Part shown: piece by piece, positions 199 through 6,689 of the stretch
How positions within the stretch are numbered: position 1 is the first letter of the stretch
How the letters are laid out: each line of letters begins with the position of its first letter
Source of the DNA: a virus
Taxonomy: Duplodnaviria; Heunggongvirae; Uroviricota; Caudoviricetes
DNA length: 7,264 nt
Direction: 5' to 3' (one strand)
Virus record (IMG/VR): IMGVR_UViG_2565956631_000003
Span: 1-7,264 of that record
Notes under the pieces: model-generated
What the model saw: the letters and a program-made list of their open reading frames with translations, nothing else
Database searches by the model: none
What the model was told of the DNA's origin: nothing
Position numbers and translations under genes: made by a program

Positions 199-639
199 TC
201 ATGCTGCCCTGTCTCCCCATCTTGCTTTCCACTCCAGAGCTAGTCGCGCTTCATCTGACCACTTAACTCCACGCTCTGTACCGAATGCCTGTATAAGCTC
301 TAATAGCTCCGCAAATTCGCTTACACACATCCTGCTGGTTGACTTGCCTATTACCACAAAGCCATTCCCGGCAAGGTTAGGAACAACATCCTGCTGCTTT
401 AATGCTGCGGTAAACACACACTTCCAGCTTTCTGCATCCAGCCAGCGACCATGCCATTCAACCTGACGAGAGACGTCACCAAGGCAAGCCCAAAGCTTTC
501 GGTTTTGGTCTAAGCTGCGGTTGCGTTCCTGAATGGTTACTACGATTGGTTTGATTGGGTCTGGAAGGATTTGCTGGATAGCTTGAATGGCGTTCTGCTG
601 ATGAATGGGGCTTCTTAGTTCAAACGTTCGTTTCCTCAT
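199..639 (-). CDS. ninB: NinB recombination protein (lambda NinB/Orf family)
   Basis: 146-aa [59 protein letters not shown]..., matching my recollection of lambda NinB almost along its full length. AGGTGA Shine-Dalgarno before ATG 639..637. Position downstream of the replication genes is as in lambda/P22. Confidence 0.88.
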
Positions 640-874
640 GGCTCACCTTCTGCACGCATGGATTAATTAACGCCAAAATAGCTTCTGGTTTCTCAATAAC
701 ATCGAACCGCTCACCACTTGCCATTCTTACAATCGTAAATCCGGCATCAAATAGGGTTTCGATGTTGTCAGAGTTAACGTACAAGGGCTCATATGCACTT
801 CTGGTGCTTTCTATCACGCCTGTGCTTGGTGGCTGATAGATGCTGCATTGCATGGTTAATTTTATAAATGGCAT
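620..874 (-). CDS. Hypothetical 84-aa protein, unrecognised
   Basis: ORF with ATG at 874..872 preceded by AAGGAG at 9-nt spacing. Its 3' end overlaps the ninB start by 20 nt, and it lies 5 nt downstream of the preceding gene, so it is operon-packed. No family recognised by eye. Confidence 0.6.
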   Translation of the reverse strand: MPFIKLTMQCSIYQPPSTGVIESTRSAYEPLYVNSDNIETLFDAGFTIVRMASGERFDVIEKPEAILALINPCVQKVSHEETNV

Positions 875-878
875 ATAC

Positions 879-1199
879 TCACTCCTTCAATTTGACTCCA
901 GCAGCTCGGATGTTTTCCTCATAAGCATCCATTGCATCACCGAAGCCATTGGAATAATCAACAGTAAACCCTTTGGCTAATGCTTCTCTGCTGTCGATAA
1001 ACTTTGGCGCGGTTATTTCAATAGCTGATCGCGATGCCTGCCACGTTTGCCAGTGGCCTTGAACATCGTCCATCACATATTGACCACCAATATTACCACT
1101 GCCAATTTCATGGTGATTTTCAGGGTAACGGATAAGGTCTGAGGATTCGCCTCCACGTCGCAACCAACTTTCTTCAAACTGCTTTCTTGATTCGTCCAT
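879..1199 (-). CDS. Hypothetical 106-aa protein, unrecognised
   Basis: ORF with ATG at 1199..1197 preceded by GAGGG at about 9 nt. Acidic soluble protein with a Gly-rich segment (HEIGSGNIGGQY). Its start lies 15 nt after the stop (1219-1217) of the upstream membrane-protein gene. Confidence 0.6.
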   Translation of the reverse strand: MDESRKQFEESWLRRGGESSDLIRYPENHHEIGSGNIGGQYVMDDVQGHWQTWQASRSAIEITAPKFIDSREALAKGFTVDYSNGFGDAMDAYEENIRAAGVKLKE

Positions 1200-1216: not shown

Positions 1217-1423
1217 TCAACTCACAAAACGCCACGCCATTTTTGCTACAGCGACAGGCATAACACCGATAATCACCCACAGGAAAATGCTACCGAAAAG
1301 CACACCCACCAGGTCTTTACCTTCGCCTACCAACCGGACAAAACTGCTGGCAACAACAATGAACGTCGCCACCATCCACATAGCACCGAGAATCCTCAAT
1401 GCAGAGAAAATTAACTCAGCCAC
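1217..1423 (-). CDS. Small (68 aa) membrane protein with two predicted transmembrane helices
   Basis: GTG start at 1423..1421 with a GGGGGAGAG Shine-Dalgarno 6 nt upstream. Sequence (M)AELIFSALRILGAMWMVATFIVVASSFVRLVGEGKDLVGVLFGSIFLWVIIGVMPVAVAKMAWRFVS shows two hydrophobic stretches of about 20 aa separated by a short charged loop. Confidence 0.55.
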   Translation of the reverse strand: MAELIFSALRILGAMWMVATFIVVASSFVRLVGEGKDLVGVLFGSIFLWVIIGVMPVAVAKMAWRFVS

Positions 1424-1438
1424 GATTTACTCTCCCCC

Positions 1439-1470
1439 AAATAAAAAGGCCCGCGATTACCAGCAGGCCT
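1439..1470 (-). terminator. Intrinsic terminator after the helicase gene (tR2-like position)
   Basis: Minus-strand RNA GGCCUGC-UGGUAAUC-GCGGGCC forms a 7-bp GC-rich stem (one G-U pair) with an 8-nt loop, followed by UUUUUAUUU. Located between the helicase stop and the next gene. Confidence 0.55.
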
Positions 1471-1498
1471 GTTACAAGCTCAGTGATGTAGATGGTCA

Positions 1499-2935
1499 TC
1501 AGAATCCTCCTTTCTTCTTGGACTGCGGTTCCTCGCGTTCACGGCGGCGCATTTCAGCAGACTGTTGGTCTGTGTCATAAATAGCGCCATTTGCCTGTAT
1601 GCAATACACCGTGCCGGTATTGCCATGGCGATTGAGGCGAAGGATTAGTTCGGTTTCACCAGGAGGAACGCTGTCATCAAAAGCACCTTCACGATGGATC
1701 CCCACCCAATAATCGCAATCCTGTTCAATCTGCCCTGTATCTCGTGAGTCACTTGGTAATGGGCGTTTATTGGTTCGGCTTTCCAGTGCGCGGTTAAGCT
1801 GTGTCAGAAGCACAACAACACAATCAAGCTCTTTGGCAAGGTTCTTCAGTCCTTTGGTGATCATGCCGTAAGCAAGGTCGTTGCGATCGGCCTTCTCAGC
1901 GGTCATTAGTGTCAGGTAATCGACCAGAATCATGCCAACACATCCTTTTTCTCGCTTGATTCGACGACTTTCGCTGACGATTTGAGCCAGAGATAATCCC
2001 GGCGTGTCGTCGATGTAAAGCAGGTCGATTTCACTCAAGCGATTGGCTGTTTCGATCGCCCTGTTGAAGTCACCATCGTAATCACCCTGATAGCCGTCAT
2101 CGGCGTCATTTGTCGCCGGAAGGTAAAATATATTCGGGTTAACACCAGACTTCTGCCCTACCAGTTTTTCCAGTATCTGGTCACCTGGCATTTCAAGGCT
2201 GAACATCAGAGCTGGCTTTTTCTCATGCACTGCGCAGTTGATTGCCATCTGGCTGTATAGCGTCGTTTTCCCCATCTTAGGGCGAGCGCCAATGACAAAC
2301 AGAGAGCCTTTAACCAGACCTTTCGGTGACAGCATCCTGTCCAGCGATGGGATCCCTGTGCTCATTCCTCGTTGTTCGCCTGACGGGTCAAATCGCTTCT
2401 CAAGGTCGCTAACCCAGTCTTCCATGACCTCACCAAATGAGCGAAGGCCGCGACGCGATCCGGTTTTTGCATGGTCTGTCAGTTGCGTGAAAATCGCCTG
2501 AATAGCTTCGTACTTCTGCGTTGCAGTCATTCCGTTGCGGGAATAGAGCAATTCCGTCGCTTCAGTCATGCGGTTGATGGCGTAGCGTTCCATTGCGGTT
2601 TCACGAACCTGCATTGCATAGGCAACGATGTTTGCTGCGCTTGGCGTGTTCTTTGCGATCTCAGCGATATAAGCAAAACCGCCAACAGACGCCGTTAACG
2701 ATTTACGCTCCAGTTCATCGAAAAGCGTCAGGCCATCTACTGGCTTTTGCTCACGGTGCATTCTGGTTATTTCTTCGAAAAGGATTTTGTGTGGTCGACT
2801 GTAAAATGAATCAGGCTTCAGCATCGCCAGGACTTTCTGGACGCGCTCACTGCTGTCATCATCCAGAAGCAATCCACCAATCACCGCCTGCTCTGCCTCG
2901 ATGCTATGGGGCGGCGCATAAAAATTATCGGTCAT
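1499..2935 (-). CDS. Replicative DNA helicase, DnaB family (P22 gene 12-like)
   Basis: DnaB-like N-terminal region (SIEAEQAVIGGLLLD), Walker A GARPKMGKTT, and a RecA-like C-terminal core. Start taken as ATG 2935..2933 (MTDNFYAPP...) with GAGGG 9 nt upstream; the ORF track's 2950 start is an upstream in-frame GTG. The start overlaps the stop of the upstream initiator gene (ATGACCGATAA). Confidence 0.9.
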   Translation of the reverse strand: MTDNFYAPPHSIEAEQAVIGGLLLDDDSSERVQKVLAMLKPDSFYSRPHKILFEEITRMHREQKPVDGLTLFDELERKSLTASVGGFAYIAEIAKNTPSAANIVAYAMQVRETAMERYAINRMTEATELLYSRNGMTATQKYEAIQAIFTQLTDHAKTGSRRGLRSFGEVMEDWVSDLEKRFDPSGEQRGMSTGIPSLDRMLSPKGLVKGSLFVIGARPKMGKTTLYSQMAINCAVHEKKPALMFSLEMPGDQILEKLVGQKSGVNPNIFYLPATNDADDGYQGDYDGDFNRAIETANRLSEIDLLYIDDTPGLSLAQIVSESRRIKREKGCVGMILVDYLTLMTAEKADRNDLAYGMITKGLKNLAKELDCVVVLLTQLNRALESRTNKRPLPSDSRDTGQIEQDCDYWVGIHREGAFDDSVPPGETELILRLNRHGNTGTVYCIQANGAIYDTDQQSAEMRRREREEPQSKKKGGF

Positions 2936-3824
2936 CGTGTTCACCCTCACGAACTTTCAGGTAGGTATTATCGTTAAGCAGGAAATCAAATCCCTTTTTG
3001 TGCCAGACGGTTCCGCGTTGATGGTTTAGGCGCTCTTCGAACATCCATCGGCAATTTTCGCCTACGTAGCTCAAATAATTTCTCCAGTCCTGCATCGTGA
3101 ACCCATGCCCGTCAAGCTGGCGTGTTATCACTCCGGCTTTTCGCCAGAACGTTCGGATCTGGTTTTTACGCTTGTCATTCAGTGCGCGGATTTTTGGCGC
3201 TTCAGGAAGGATTTCGTGGTAAGCATCGACAACATCCTGACAGCTAACGGAAGGTTTTTTCTTGTCAGACTTTTTGTCTGCTGCGGTACTCTCTAATACG
3301 TCAGTATTAGAGATAATATTATTATATTCTTTATCTGTGGTAATTTGCTGGTAATCTGCTGGTACAGTATTGCTTGCAGGCATTGGTATTGCTGGCTTTG
3401 AGGTGGTAATTTGCTGGTAATCTGCTGGTACAAAATTTGACTGATAATCGTCATATTTCTCTACCGAGAAAACTGAGAATTTACCGTGTGAAACCCAGTC
3501 AATCATGCCGAGCTTTTTGAACTTTCTAAGCAGGTACTGAACGCGATCTGGTTTGAGTCCTGTTTCAAACGCCAGAGAGTTTCTACCGCCAAGTAGCTTC
3601 CCTCTGCCTACCAGAATTTCTCCTGCGTCAGTCATTACATACTCAGGCGTATGCTTTGCTTTGAGGATTAAGTGAACCCACAGATGCGCAGCTTCTGCGT
3701 CCTTGTAAAACGGCACATCCATAATTTTACGGTGCAGCAAGGCATACCCCTTACCGCTGCTTTGATGCGGTTGTTGTAGCCTTCTGGCCTCTCTGGCTTC
3801 GGCTAGATTAGATATGTTACTCAT
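2925..3824 (-). CDS. Phage replication initiator (lambda O / P22 gp18 functional analogue) containing the origin
   Basis: 299-aa ORF immediately upstream of, and coupled to, the helicase. N-terminal region looks like a winged-helix DNA-binding domain. A central duplicated peptide [10 protein letters not shown] is encoded by the iteron DNA. Family assignment is by position and architecture, not a confirmed match. Confidence 0.75.
3305..3431. repeat. Replication origin-like iteron array with flanking AT-rich tract, inside the initiator gene
   Basis: Two perfect 30-bp copies of GTGGTAATTTGCTGGTAATCTGCTGGTACA at 3336-3365 and 3402-3431. Each holds two sub-iterons of about 11 bp (GGTAAT[T/C]TGCTGG), with degenerate copies between (GGTATTGCTGG at 3384-3394). 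Adjacent AT-rich stretch at 3305-3335 (ATTAGAGATAATATTATTATATTCTTTATC) lies downstream in the gene's direction, as in lambda ori. Confidence 0.65.
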
Positions 3825-3963
3825 GACCTTTCTCCTTCTGCATCAGCTTCACTTTTTCCAACTCAGCCCGGAATCGACCAGGCTGCTTGAAGCTGGACAG
3901 GAAGCGATCACGTAGTATGTGTTTGTGAATTTTGTCCTGGTAAGGACTGAGTTGTTTTGTCAT
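3817..3963 (-). CDS. Small 48-aa basic ORF between cII and the initiator gene
   Basis: ATG at 3963..3961 preceded by GGAG at 5 nt. Translation [48 protein letters not shown]. Its TAA stop overlaps the initiator start (ATGAGTAA), suggesting translational coupling. Absent from the ORF track, presumably because it is short. Confidence 0.35.
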
Positions 3964-3973
3964 AATTACTCCT

Positions 3974-4049
3974 GTGGATTGATCCAGTAATTCCCTCAGA
4001 ATTGCATATCAATTTGCTTAAAATCCTCGGTGGCGGCCGGGGATTTTTT
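3974..4049 (+). ncRNA. oop: oop-like antisense RNA overlapping the 3' end of cII
   Basis: -10 CATAAT at 3961-3966 with a weak -35 TGGTAA at 3938-3943. Plus-strand intrinsic terminator at 4025-4049: CCUCGG-UGGCGG-CCGGGG stem-loop followed by AUUUUUU. Predicted transcript of about 76 nt. GAUCCAGUAAU...CCUCAGAA resembles my recollection of lambda oop RNA. Confidence 0.55.
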
Positions 4050-4292
4050 CTTTGTGATTTCATCAAGCGCATACTTAAAAGCCCTGCTAATCGGACTGAT
4101 GTCTGATGCCATTCCGAAAGCACACAAGACCGAAGCAATAAATCTCCAGTCCGTTCTGCTTATCTTCGATTCATGACAGCCAATCATCTTTGCCAGACCG
4201 CGCTGGGTAAGCGTTGACAGGTTGATTAGTAAATCAGTTTCAGCGCGATCAATTTCTCGCTGTGTTGGCTTGCTGTAGCTTGCTTGTGCCAT
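3996..4292 (-). CDS. cII: CII-like transcriptional activator
   Basis: 98-aa ORF whose C-terminus ...[18 protein letters not shown] is close to my recollection of lambda CII (...TNKKRPAATERSEQIQMEF). Helix-turn-helix segment ...SKISR.... Sits between cro and the replication genes. AGGAAA Shine-Dalgarno upstream of ATG 4292..4290. Confidence 0.85.
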
Positions 4293-4302
4293 TTGTTAAT
4301 TT
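4270..4302 (+). promoter_or_regulatory. PRE-like CII-dependent promoter (antisense to the cII 5' end, directed toward the repressor gene)
   Basis: TTGC-N6-TTGC direct repeat at 4270-4273 and 4280-4283 (TTGCTGTAGCTTGC), the CII-binding architecture of lambda pRE. Weak -10 TAATTT follows 13 nt after the second repeat (4297-4302). Position inside the start of cII matches lambda. Confidence 0.45.
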
Positions 4303-4350
4303 TCCTATATTGGTATTGAGTTATAGCGGCACACCCAATGGATTTGCCGC

Positions 4351-4407: not shown

Positions 4408-4593
4408 TTATGCCGCTTGGCGGTAAGCACTTTCTTGATACTTCAGGGCGCCAGCTGTAACGATTTCCAATCGATAGGCGTCTTTCTCTGGGATAACTTC
4501 TTTCCACTGAGAGACTGCTGCATCGCTAATGCCTAGTGCTTTAGCAACAGCACGCTGGGTTCCGAAGTGGTCAATAACATCTTTTTTGTACAT
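4408..4593 (-). CDS. cro: Cro repressor (P22 Cro-like, 61 aa)
   Basis: MYKKDVIDHFGTQRAVAKALGISDAAVSQWKEVIPEKDAYRLEIVTAGALKYQESAYRQAA matches my recollection of P22 Cro. GGAG Shine-Dalgarno 7 nt upstream. Divergent from the repressor gene across the operator region. Confidence 0.9.
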   Translation of the reverse strand: MYKKDVIDHFGTQRAVAKALGISDAAVSQWKEVIPEKDAYRLEIVTAGALKYQESAYRQAA

Positions 4594-5528: not shown

Positions 5529-5638
5529 CCAGAACTTGAGTGGTTTTGGGGATGGCGCGAATTGCAGCTGCAAGACAGCGATCGAGAAGATAAGCACCTC
5601 GACGCGTCATGCGCCAAAGCCACTTAAAGGAGACCATC

Positions 5639-5944
5639 ATGGTAACCATTGTCTGGAAAGAATCCAAAGGTACGGCAAAAAGCCGCTACAAAGCTCGCAG
5701 AGCAGAACTTATTGCCGAGCGACGCAGTAATGAAGCACTGGCGCGAAAAATTGCTCTAAAGCTCTCTGGTTGCGTCAGAGCAGACAAAGCAGCATCACTC
5801 GGAAGCATTTGCTGCAAGAAGAAAGAAGAAGTCGTTCGAAAAAATAGAAGTATTTATTACAAGGATTCAAACCCATTAGGAAACAAAATACATGCAGTCC
5901 AAAAAATAAAATTGTACAGTAAACTACCGTACGGTGCTTATTGA
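5639..5944 (+). CDS. N: N-type transcription antiterminator (phi21-like arginine-rich motif)
   Basis: AAGGAG at 5627-5632, 6 nt before ATG 5639. N-terminal MVTIVWKESKGTAKSRYKARRAELIAERR is the arginine-rich boxB-binding motif I recall for phage 21 N. First gene after nutL. The in-frame ATG at 5609 lacks a Shine-Dalgarno. The 3' third of the gene is markedly AT-rich. Confidence 0.8.
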   Translation: MVTIVWKESKGTAKSRYKARRAELIAERRSNEALARKIALKLSGCVRADKAASLGSICCKKKEEVVRKNRSIYYKDSNPLGNKIHAVQKIKLYSKLPYGAY

Positions 5945-5946
5945 GT

Positions 5947-6285
5947 ATGCTTATGGTGAAAAAGACTATTTATGTTAATCCTGACCGCGGACAAAACAGA
6001 AAAGTATCTGATAGAGGTCTTACATCTCGAGACAGGAGGAGAATAGCGAGATGGGAAAAGAGGATAGCATATGCATTAAAAAACGGTGTAACACCTGGAT
6101 TTAATGCTATAGATGACGGTCCTGAATATAAGATTAATGAAGACCCAATGGATAAAGTTGACAAAGCATTAGCAACACCATTTCCTCGCGATGTCGAAAA
6201 AATTGAAGATGAAAAATATGAGGATGTAATGCACAGAGTTGTTAATCACGCTCACCAACGAAATCCAAATAAAAAATGGTCATAG
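5947..6285 (+). CDS. Hypothetical 113-aa protein in an AT-rich segment immediately after N
   Basis: ORF begins at the N stop (TTG 5941, ATG 5947 or 5953; no clear Shine-Dalgarno, so the start is uncertain). Arg-rich N-terminal half (RGQNRKVSDRGLTSRDRRRIARWEKR) and acidic C-terminal half (EDPMDKVDK...EKIEDEKYED). AT-rich codon usage unlike the flanking genes. No family recognised. Confidence 0.5.
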   Translation: MLMVKKTIYVNPDRGQNRKVSDRGLTSRDRRRIARWEKRIAYALKNGVTPGFNAIDDGPEYKINEDPMDKVDKALATPFPRDVEKIEDEKYEDVMHRVVNHAHQRNPNKKWS

Positions 6286-6418: not shown

Positions 6419-6505
6419 ATGGAAGAAGAATTTGAAGAGTTCGAAGAGCATCCTCAGGATGTGATGGAACAATACCAGGACTATCCGTATGACTACGACT
6501 ATTGA
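6419..6505 (+). CDS. 28-aa highly acidic, aromatic-rich micro-ORF overlapping the ral start
   Basis: GAGGTGA Shine-Dalgarno 6 nt before ATG 6419. Translation MEEEFEEFEEHPQDVMEQYQDYPYDYDY. The TGA at 6503-6505 overlaps the ral ATG (6489) by 17 nt. Confidence 0.4.
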   Translation: MEEEFEEFEEHPQDVMEQYQDYPYDYDY

Positions 6506-6689
6506 TAAAAATCAATGGTGTGGACAATTCAAGCGATGCAATGGATGCAAGCTGCAATCGGAATGCATGGTTAAGCCTGAAGAAATGTTTCCTGTAATGG
6601 AAGATGGGAAATATGTCGATAAATGGGCAATACGAACGACGGCAATGATTGCCAGAGAACTTGGTAAACAGAACAACAAGGCTGCCTGA
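6489..6689 (+). CDS. ral: Ral antirestriction protein (lambda Ral-like, 66 aa)
   Basis: MTTTIDKNQWCGQFKRCNGCKLQSECMVKPEEMFPVMEDGKYVDKWAIRTTAMIARELGKQNNKAA matches my recollection of lambda Ral. Four Cys (C-x5-C-x2-C-x5-C). Early-left operon position downstream of N. Confidence 0.7.
   Translation: MTTTIDKNQWCGQFKRCNGCKLQSECMVKPEEMFPVMEDGKYVDKWAIRTTAMIARELGKQNNKAA

Follow-up and report, generated by a model that had tools for sequence, protein, structure and literature searches.

The closest described counterparts of the locus analyzed here are those of phages HK022 (gp59-gp60) and Sf6 (gp48-gp49), which have the same order of helicase gene, small ORFs, PF26207 gene, FlbD-like gene, and ninB. 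The order is gp58, gp59, gp60, ninB in HK022, which has two extra ORFs (gp56, gp57) after its helicase gene, and gp48, gp49, gp50 (= ninB) in Sf6. In both phages, the FlbD-like gene overlaps ninB by 20 nt, as it does here, and the genes are annotated merely as hypothetical or ‘flagellar protein’. For an E. coli prophage with the same order, the NCBI pipeline gives the names ‘phiTE_015 family protein’ and ‘flagellar FlbD family protein’. Relatives of the PF26207 product are the type member, phiTE_015 of Pectobacterium phage phiTE, and orf41 of Pseudomonas phage D3, which share the motifs SR..FE.W, W..W.ASRAAIE, and a C-terminal ..AG.K. with it; all three are small proteins of early or accessory regions. 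However, phiTE is a virulent myovirus, and its gene adjoins a Lar-like gene, not the helicase-ninB junction. SwrD, the founding protein of the FlbD family, forms hexameric rings, resembles RemA, ComK, and LytTR domains, influences both motor torque and the level of fla-che transcripts in Bacillus, and has been reported absent from Escherichia (2026 preprint, PMC13232269). In lambda, ren lies at the same position, between the replication genes and ninB; lambda can do without its nin region, which depends on N (PMC10695390).

We compared these systems with a 7,264-nt stretch of DNA from a virus of the Caudoviricetes (IMG/VR record IMGVR_UViG_2565956631_000003; hereafter, the window), in which ORFs of 106 aa and 84 aa lie between a helicase gene and ninB. 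Each gene is one more copy from a catalogued phage family, and their arrangement has been published before, for HK022 and Sf6. The 84-aa protein is 95–96% identical to that of these two phages, and the upstream PF26207 protein is 73% identical to its counterpart in HK022 and 34–41% identical in Sf6. The PF26207 allele of the window has a cassette combination that differs from those of HK022 and Sf6. The genes of the region are as follows.

199–639, minus strand: ninB/orf recombination mediator (Pfam NinB, 180 bits)
620–874, minus strand: 84-aa ORF, acidic protein of a prophage branch of the FlbD/SwrD family, with a predicted SwrD/RemA-like beta fold
879–1199, minus strand: 106-aa ORF, acidic soluble protein, PF26207 (Phage_phiTE_015), PHROG 343
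1217–1423, minus strand: 68-aa strongly hydrophobic ORF (PHROG 1165, E 3.5e-37) with two likely membrane helices
1416–1499, minus strand: 27-aa ninA-like ORF, its ATG overlapping the helicase stop codon
1447–1470, inside the 27-aa ninA-like ORF: tR2-like intrinsic terminator hairpin (pattern match)
1499–2950, minus strand: DnaB-type helicase gene (Pfam DnaB and DnaB_C)
2925–3824, minus strand: O-like replication gene
between the O-like replication gene and cII, minus strand: DUF2740 ORF
3996–4292, minus strand: cII
4408–4593, minus strand: cro

A sequence-only reading of the window had described this junction as a pair of unrecognized, tightly coupled small genes. The ORF list confirms their lengths and coordinates and the 20-nt overlap of the 84-aa ORF with ninB (620–639). 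Both proteins are soluble, as had been stated, and also acidic (pI 4.9 for the 106-aa protein and 4.6 for the 84-aa protein), and the Shine-Dalgarno-like sequences are found as GAGGG, 9 nt 5′ of the ATG of the 106-aa ORF, and AAGGAG, 7 nt 5′ of the ATG of the 84-aa ORF and located inside the 106-aa gene. Other parts of that description need correction: the gap between the two ORFs, given as 5 nt, is 4 nt (GTAT, 875–878), the 27-aa and 68-aa ORFs of the same junction had been overlooked, and both proteins belong to recognized families (PF26207/PHROG 343 and the FlbD-like PF06289/PHROG 8458), with the arrangement annotated in HK022 and Sf6.

The order of transcription is cro, cII, the DUF2740 ORF, the O-like gene, the helicase gene, the 27-aa, 68-aa, 106-aa, and 84-aa ORFs, and ninB, with tight packing and overlaps typical of the whole operon. 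The opposite strand encodes a phage 21-type repressor and N, along with Nun and ral, a set that is also seen in phage mEp235. The stretch of Sf6 that is homologous to the 1416–1499 region is annotated as gene 45 (NinA-like), tR2, and boundary sequence; the folding energy of the tR2-like hairpin is by itself ordinary (z -0.74). We gathered 80 viral loci through the 106-aa family, mostly from E. coli and Shigella-type phages and not independent samples, and the 68-aa ORF (GRAVY = 1.49) is the most frequent upstream neighbor of the PF26207 gene, lying directly upstream in 49 of them. No promoter-like site was found within 150–1700, and an Rfam scan of the whole window found no known RNA family. 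Both genes would belong, as accessory members, to the rightward (pR) delayed-early operon of a lambdoid prophage; lying past the tR2-like terminator, they would share a transcript with the replication and nin genes and require N antitermination. Because they are positioned past this terminator and a phage 21-type N gene is present, delayed-early, antitermination-dependent expression is expected. By analogy with the lambda nin region, both genes would be dispensable for growth and plaque formation, and a nonessential, delayed-early character is what they would share with lambda ren. The 106-aa protein has no similarity to lambda Ren in BLASTP (E 7.9 over 3 residues).

For the 106-aa protein, a member of a widespread phage family, 153 homologues were found, in which the frame is kept at low identity. 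Nearly all of the 120 homologues listed (of 153) carry precomputed PF26207 annotation, including one that is 98% identical, and comparison of the homologue profile with phiTE_015 in hhalign gave a probability of 98.5% (E 1.6e-15). The motifs of PF26207 (N-terminal SR..FE, central W..W.ASR..IE, and C-terminal AG.K) are present, as they are in phiTE_015, and residues W53, S56, R57, and K105 are invariant in 64 homologues. Helices make up most of the AF2 model (pLDDT 76), which also has two short strands (residues 61–63 paired with 103–105) and a disordered stretch at residues 28–42 (pLDDT below 50). No solved structural relative of this model was found, its matches among viral models were limited to uncharacterized phage proteins, and a profile search of PDB sequences with the family returned chance-level matches only (annexin, a cyclase).

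Near-invariant amino acid blocks of the PF26207 protein lie at residues 1–10, 50–62, and 97–106. These three short blocks would frame two allelic cassettes, V1 and V2, that reassort between phages. The parts of the gene are listed below, with the loci in which homology to the window is interrupted.

875–912, minus strand: C-terminal conserved block IRAAGVKLKE with stop codon and GTAT spacer, the left joint of the slot
913–1014, minus strand: cassette V2, about residues 63–96; homology of L040, L041, L049, and L065 is lost here and present on both sides
1015–1043, minus strand: middle conserved block WQASRSAIEI, with W53, S56, and R57 invariant
1044–1175, minus strand: cassette V1, about residues 9–52, exchangeable; homology of L074 is lost here and present on both flanks
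1176–1199, minus strand: N-terminal conserved block MDESRKQF, with BLAST joints in L074 and amino acid entropy near zero at residues 1–10

Judging from these alignments, the PF26207 gene is itself mosaic in structure, with two cassettes that can be exchanged. Amino acid entropy is high at residues 11–49 (V1) and across V2, and the V1 variants, which form at least 7 classes, reassort with the V2 classes (at least 5). In our reading, the variants retain a loose common pattern, such as an aromatic-Gly motif ahead of the C-terminal block, which argues for diverged alleles, not unrelated inserts. The middle block shows synonymous variation beside invariant residues, implying that selection acts on the protein. 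In the end blocks, even third codon positions hardly vary in this sample, as would suit sequences that serve as recombination joints and carry translation signals. Truncated copies of the PF26207 gene also occur.

Pairwise DNA comparison located the boundaries of a cassette slot downstream of this gene. Homology between phages stops at window position 875, just past the PF26207 stop codon and GTAT, and in loci of the same ninB type without the 84-aa gene it begins again at 638/639, the ninB start codon. The window carries the following elements between these limits.

640–874, minus strand: DNA specific to the 84-aa cassette
620–637, minus strand: last six codons and stop of the 84-aa gene, read out of frame from the conserved ninB 5′ end
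638/639, minus strand: 5′ end of ninB, the right joint of the slot

The left joint is a 38-nt island (875–912) of 89–92% identity that stands beside unrelated sequence in L040, L041, L049, and L065. It encodes the invariant IRAAGVK(V/L)KE and the AAGGAG ribosome-binding site, which serves whichever gene follows. In L018 and L020, the same junction sequence is found 5′ of the 84-aa gene despite a broken or different upstream gene. The last six residues of the 84-aa protein, taken from the ninB end, are predicted to be disordered. What follows the PF26207 gene differs among related phages: it is the 84-aa gene, an acidic ORF of 48 aa, a membrane ORF of 63 aa, another ORF, or no ORF at all. This upholds the earlier view of the junction as a variable accessory slot, as does the confirmed presence of lambda ren in the same slot. 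The exchange points would be the PF26207 C-terminal block with its ribosome-binding site on the left and the ninB start on the right, and phage recombinases could use short homologies at these joints. Rad52-like recombinases of phages generate mosaics at short, diverged homologous stretches, with exchange of small fragments being more frequent than that of whole modules (PMC3945230). As far as can be read from the compared loci, the pattern is the familiar lambdoid cassette exchange across short conserved sequences.

The 106-aa and 84-aa genes are not co-inherited and do not co-vary. The 84-aa gene is present in 5 of the 80 viral loci with a PF26207 gene and missing in the other 75. Among annotated phage genomes searched by tblastn, the 106-aa family occurs in 79 records versus 12 for the 84-aa family. 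Of 5,426 complete E. coli genomes, 14 have the 84-aa cassette and 263 the 106-aa gene (51 full-length). The 84-aa gene is thus a rare cassette. When loci with a close 84-aa copy were compared, PF26207 C-terminal-block sequence was immediately upstream in 21/21, which, in our own reading, probably reflects a common recombination joint. The upstream genes in these loci form 12 clusters at 80% identity and are 27–100% identical to the protein of the window, while the 84-aa proteins next to these 12 alleles are 93–100% identical. L018 combines an intact 84-aa gene with an upstream gene that is interrupted by a premature stop. The upstream neighbors of distant 84-aa homologues are different: Klebsiella prophages have a Ren-like gene at this position, Pectobacterium phage ZF40 a gene for a 278-aa protein, Serratia an 82-aa ORF, and other prophages NinX. 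Profile-profile comparison of the two families found no relationship. In one protein (P0128), an FlbD-like domain is joined to a tail with weak similarity (10.4 bits) to the PF26207 C-terminus, a possible hint that the two families are linked; the multi-repeat matches P0132 and P0135 from the representative search were discarded as low-complexity repeat proteins.

The 84-aa protein scores 23.9 bits against Pfam FlbD (PF06289; gathering cut-off 24.7) and matches PHROG 8458. Among the members of its family, 42/44 match FlbD at E≤0.01 (best 1.2e-08), and near-identical copies carry precomputed PF06289.17 annotation. A total of 138 profile matches were obtained. The frame is kept in distant copies (35–45% identity) from prophages of Klebsiella, Serratia, Pectobacterium, Dickeya, Enterobacter, and Citrobacter, and the pooled pN/pS of the gene in close copies is 0.31. 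Since this family and PF26207 both retain their frames in many homologues at low identity, they are more than chance ORFs. Most homologues with an organism named in the source come from Klebsiella species, and one carrier is Shigella phage Sf6. In the loci examined, the homologues are always located in the prophage replication/nin region and never in a flagellar operon, which sets them apart from FlbD/SwrD.

The AF2 model of the 84-aa protein (pLDDT 83) has strands at residues 3–14, 23–34, 38–43, 47–51, and 56–59, a helix at 63–70, and a short helical turn between b2 and b3; residues 75–84 have a pLDDT below 50, and C-termini vary across the family. FlbD/SwrD proteins of Bacillus subtilis and Borrelia burgdorferi have a similar domain sequence and the same five-strand plus helix topology, in agreement with the strand/helix topology described for SwrD (PMC13232269). 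The nearest solved structures are the DNA-binding RemA, AgrA LytTR, and ComE, the same folds as reported for SwrD; a profile search of PDB sequences with the 84-aa family found nothing. SwrD has two conserved motifs, Asn-x3-Leu/Ile at the pore and Pro-Asp-Thr at the surface (PMC13232269). In an alignment made by eye, the phage protein carries N34-x3-I38-E39 and T47, so that by our reading the Asn-x3-Ile-Glu and the conserved Thr of FlbD/SwrD are retained, whereas G45-F46 replaces the Pro-Asp of the surface motif. The pore-motif Asn is absent as a conserved residue in the Klebsiella and Pectobacterium members. Compared to SwrD, the b1–b2 hairpin of the phage protein is about 16 residues longer.

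Based on these results, we consider it probable that the 106-aa and 84-aa ORFs are two genuine, independently inherited accessory genes in a cassette-exchange hot spot, not a jointly acting pair, and that they are adjacent because both sit at this hot spot. The sequence-only reading had proposed instead a functional two-gene module (superinfection exclusion, anti-defense, or toxin-antitoxin-like) whose products act mutually or together, and this now appears quite improbable. Cognate pairs co-vary and these two genes do not, which argues against a cognate module: the partner is missing in 75/80 PF26207 loci, a single near-invariant 84-aa cluster stands beside 12 divergent upstream alleles ranging from 27 to 100% identity, L018 keeps an intact 84-aa gene beside a truncated upstream gene, and the distant 84-aa homologues have unrelated neighbors. 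The synteny comparison thus shows essentially no conservation as a pair. The 4-nt gap, with the ribosome-binding site of the second gene inside the first, would favor coupling, but tight packing and overlaps are the rule throughout the operon; the PF26207 C-terminal sequence directly upstream of every close 84-aa copy and the fusion-like P0128 also count on the side of a module. Pfam, NCBIfam, and PADLOC showed no toxin, antitoxin, or defense-system domain in either protein (NCBIfam and PADLOC gave zero matches for three small proteins), and a promoter of its own was not found for the pair in 150–1700, both of which speak against the toxin-antitoxin-like version. It is more improbable still, to the point of being nearly negligible, that mosaic recombination produced one or both ORFs as by-products with no function. 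The out-of-frame origin of the last six 84-aa residues from the ninB 5′ end, their predicted disorder, the rarity of the 84-aa gene, and the truncation of some PF26207 copies would agree with such an origin. However, both families retain intact frames and conserved residues across genera at 25–45% identity, the pN/pS of the 84-aa gene is 0.31, synonymous changes accompany invariant residues in the PF26207 middle block, and both proteins have confident folded models.

The ‘flagellar protein’ label given to the 84-aa family by annotation pipelines is doubtful because the named hosts are mostly Klebsiella and one carrier is Shigella phage Sf6. Most Klebsiella and Shigella are non-flagellate. The label is probably a misnomer, and it is unlikely that the 84-aa protein is a true functional FlbD/SwrD orthologue with which the phage alters host flagellar motor output or flagellar gene expression. 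The Pfam FlbD match, the flagellar label from PGAP and PHROG, and the SwrD-like fold would support such a role, given that SwrD affects torque and fla-che transcripts in Bacillus (PMC13232269). Yet the gene resides in the phage nin region, not in a flagellar operon, Escherichia is without SwrD according to the same preprint, the window protein falls under the Pfam cut-off, Gly-Phe-Thr stands where SwrD has Pro-Asp-Thr, and the pore Asn varies across the phage family. We also have little expectation that the protein regulates phage or host transcription as a RemA-like ring bound to DNA or RNA, even though the best structural matches (RemA, AgrA LytTR, ComE) bind DNA and the same resemblance was noted together with altered transcript levels in a swrD mutant (PMC13232269). 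In RemA, the DNA-binding arginines are on a helical insertion between b3 and b4 (PMC13232269). The corresponding connection in the 84-aa model consists of residues 44–46 only, a 3-residue turn, the identity to RemA (DUF370) is 18%, and the protein is acidic (pI 4.6), with 11 Asp+Glu versus 6 Lys+Arg. Direct DNA binding is therefore unlikely, given this charge and the missing RemA insertion, and the domain scan found no HTH or other nucleic-acid-binding domain.

Functional statements on both proteins are drawn from fold, charge, host range, and position only. Literature searches on FlbD with phage or prophage, on phiTE_015, on PF26207, and on lambdoid/ninB/anti-defense found no functional study of either family. 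From the model, we give about an even chance to the 84-aa protein being a SwrD/RemA-like ring that binds a protein partner. A more specific version, which we regard as improbable, places a SwrD-like ring on a non-flagellar target present in all Enterobacterales, such as the cytoplasmic face of TolQR or ExbBD (a MotA-like 5:2 ion-driven motor). If this is true, superinfecting phages and colicins that depend on Tol or TonB would be shut out when the motor is blocked, and the result would provide the first function for phage FlbD-like proteins and an experimental handle on the unresolved SwrD mechanism. For the PF26207 protein, a tentative suggestion is that the conserved blocks form a scaffold that exposes two variable surfaces for contact with a partner that itself varies; host takeover and anti-defense are examples of such a role. 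In a separate reading, it may be a two-cassette specificity protein whose shuffled cassettes track variable host defense proteins. Either gene singly may have an anti-defense or exclusion role, and if either protein proves to be such a factor, the alternative cassettes of the slot are natural candidates too.

Whatever their targets, the two genes bear on other questions. The literature has the SwrD family absent from Escherichia, though a SwrD-fold protein is encoded here in enterobacterial prophages and could help studies of the fold. The PF26207 gene provides a clean example of intragenic cassette shuffling between blocks of 24–38 nt. As a minor observation on gene neighborhoods, a Lar-like restriction-alleviation gene adjoins each of the two families in one context, a weak lead.

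The 84-aa FlbD-like gene of the window occupies an interval between the PF26207 (106-aa) gene's stop codon and ninB, and in related loci this same interval holds other cassettes. These were located as follows, each comparison locus (L-number) having its own coordinates.

L040 688-840 and L074 4274-4426: 48-aa acidic ORF (MSAYEEIMLALRFFFGVEEDEN...)
L024 2494-2700 and L034 4319-4525: 63-aa membrane ORF (MSRRSSFLGFVIFLFCTGY...)
L065 4313-4380: third ORF

All of the alternative cassettes begin at a common start junction, TGAG(T/C)ATG. A PF26207 gene in L018 (3700-3996) is interrupted by an in-frame TAA within its exchangeable cassette V2 (...GHNCAID*CADAIRAAGIKVKE), with an intact 84-aa gene downstream, and therefore the latter persists without a full-length upstream partner. 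On the 5' side of the 106-aa gene, the following minus-strand features were found in the window.

1217-1423, minus strand: 68-aa ORF (PHROG 1165), located after the helicase gene and before the 106-aa gene
1416-1499, minus strand: 27-aa ninA-like ORF, whose start codon shares one base with the helicase stop codon
1447-1470, minus strand: tR2-like intrinsic terminator hairpin, inside the ninA-like ORF

In 49 of the 80 related loci, the 68-aa ORF immediately precedes the PF26207 gene, the two being separated by a 17-nt spacer, and it is thus a steadier neighbor of this gene than the 84-aa gene. Its product is very hydrophobic (GRAVY 1.49) and probably forms two membrane helices. Its GTG start is overlapped by the stop of the ninA-like ORF; the homologous stretch in Sf6 carries the annotations tR2 and mosaic 'boundary sequence'.

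Pairings involving the FlbD-like family were also found in other prophages.

L103 3702-4225 and L104-L106 3702-4225: 100-aa gene and FlbD-like gene (74 aa), Klebsiella prophages
L110-L112 4001-4363: P0128 (120 aa), FlbD-like domain with a C-terminal tail (...GYASGADDMRNKCNLAIRAAGITVRGDR)

In the Klebsiella prophages, the 100-aa gene always precedes the FlbD-like gene with an ATGA overlap, and this pairing is kept across two different replication modules. Similarity to lambda Ren is seen at the N-terminus of the 100-aa protein (43 residues at 33% identity, E 2e-07). The 'exclusion protein ren' label that phage vB_Kpn_RAH1 places on the FlbD-like gene itself is probably displaced by one gene. 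P0128, encoded between a NinX-family gene and either ninB or a DUF1367 gene, has a tail with weak similarity (10.4 bits) to the C-terminal module of PF26207; this domain joining could reflect a functional link, or could merely be one more recombination product. Each family has a Lar-like neighbor in one context: phiTE_014, a Lar-like restriction-alleviation gene, adjoins the PF26207 member phiTE_015 (L109 8969-9647), and a Lar_restr_allev gene is immediately 3' of the Serratia FlbD-like gene (L107 1277-1715), a guilt by association that hints weakly at anti-restriction for both. Some PF26207 proteins (L043, L061, L063, and L097, around 3896-4330) carry a cysteine-rich N-terminal extension of ~32 residues (MSKCQKCNNTGMCDSGGSTPWGEPIFIECDC...) resembling a small zinc-binding module.

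Three further genes were found on the plus strand of the window.

5609-6285 and 6489-6689, plus strand: phage 21-type N antiterminator gene, directly followed by the Nun gene, then ral

Nun is of the transcription-termination/exclusion type, ral matches Pfam Ral (E 1.6e-48), and the N-Nun tandem also exists in mEp235. Based on this gene content, the window joins immunity of the phage 21 type to a replication-nin segment of the HK022/Sf6 type.
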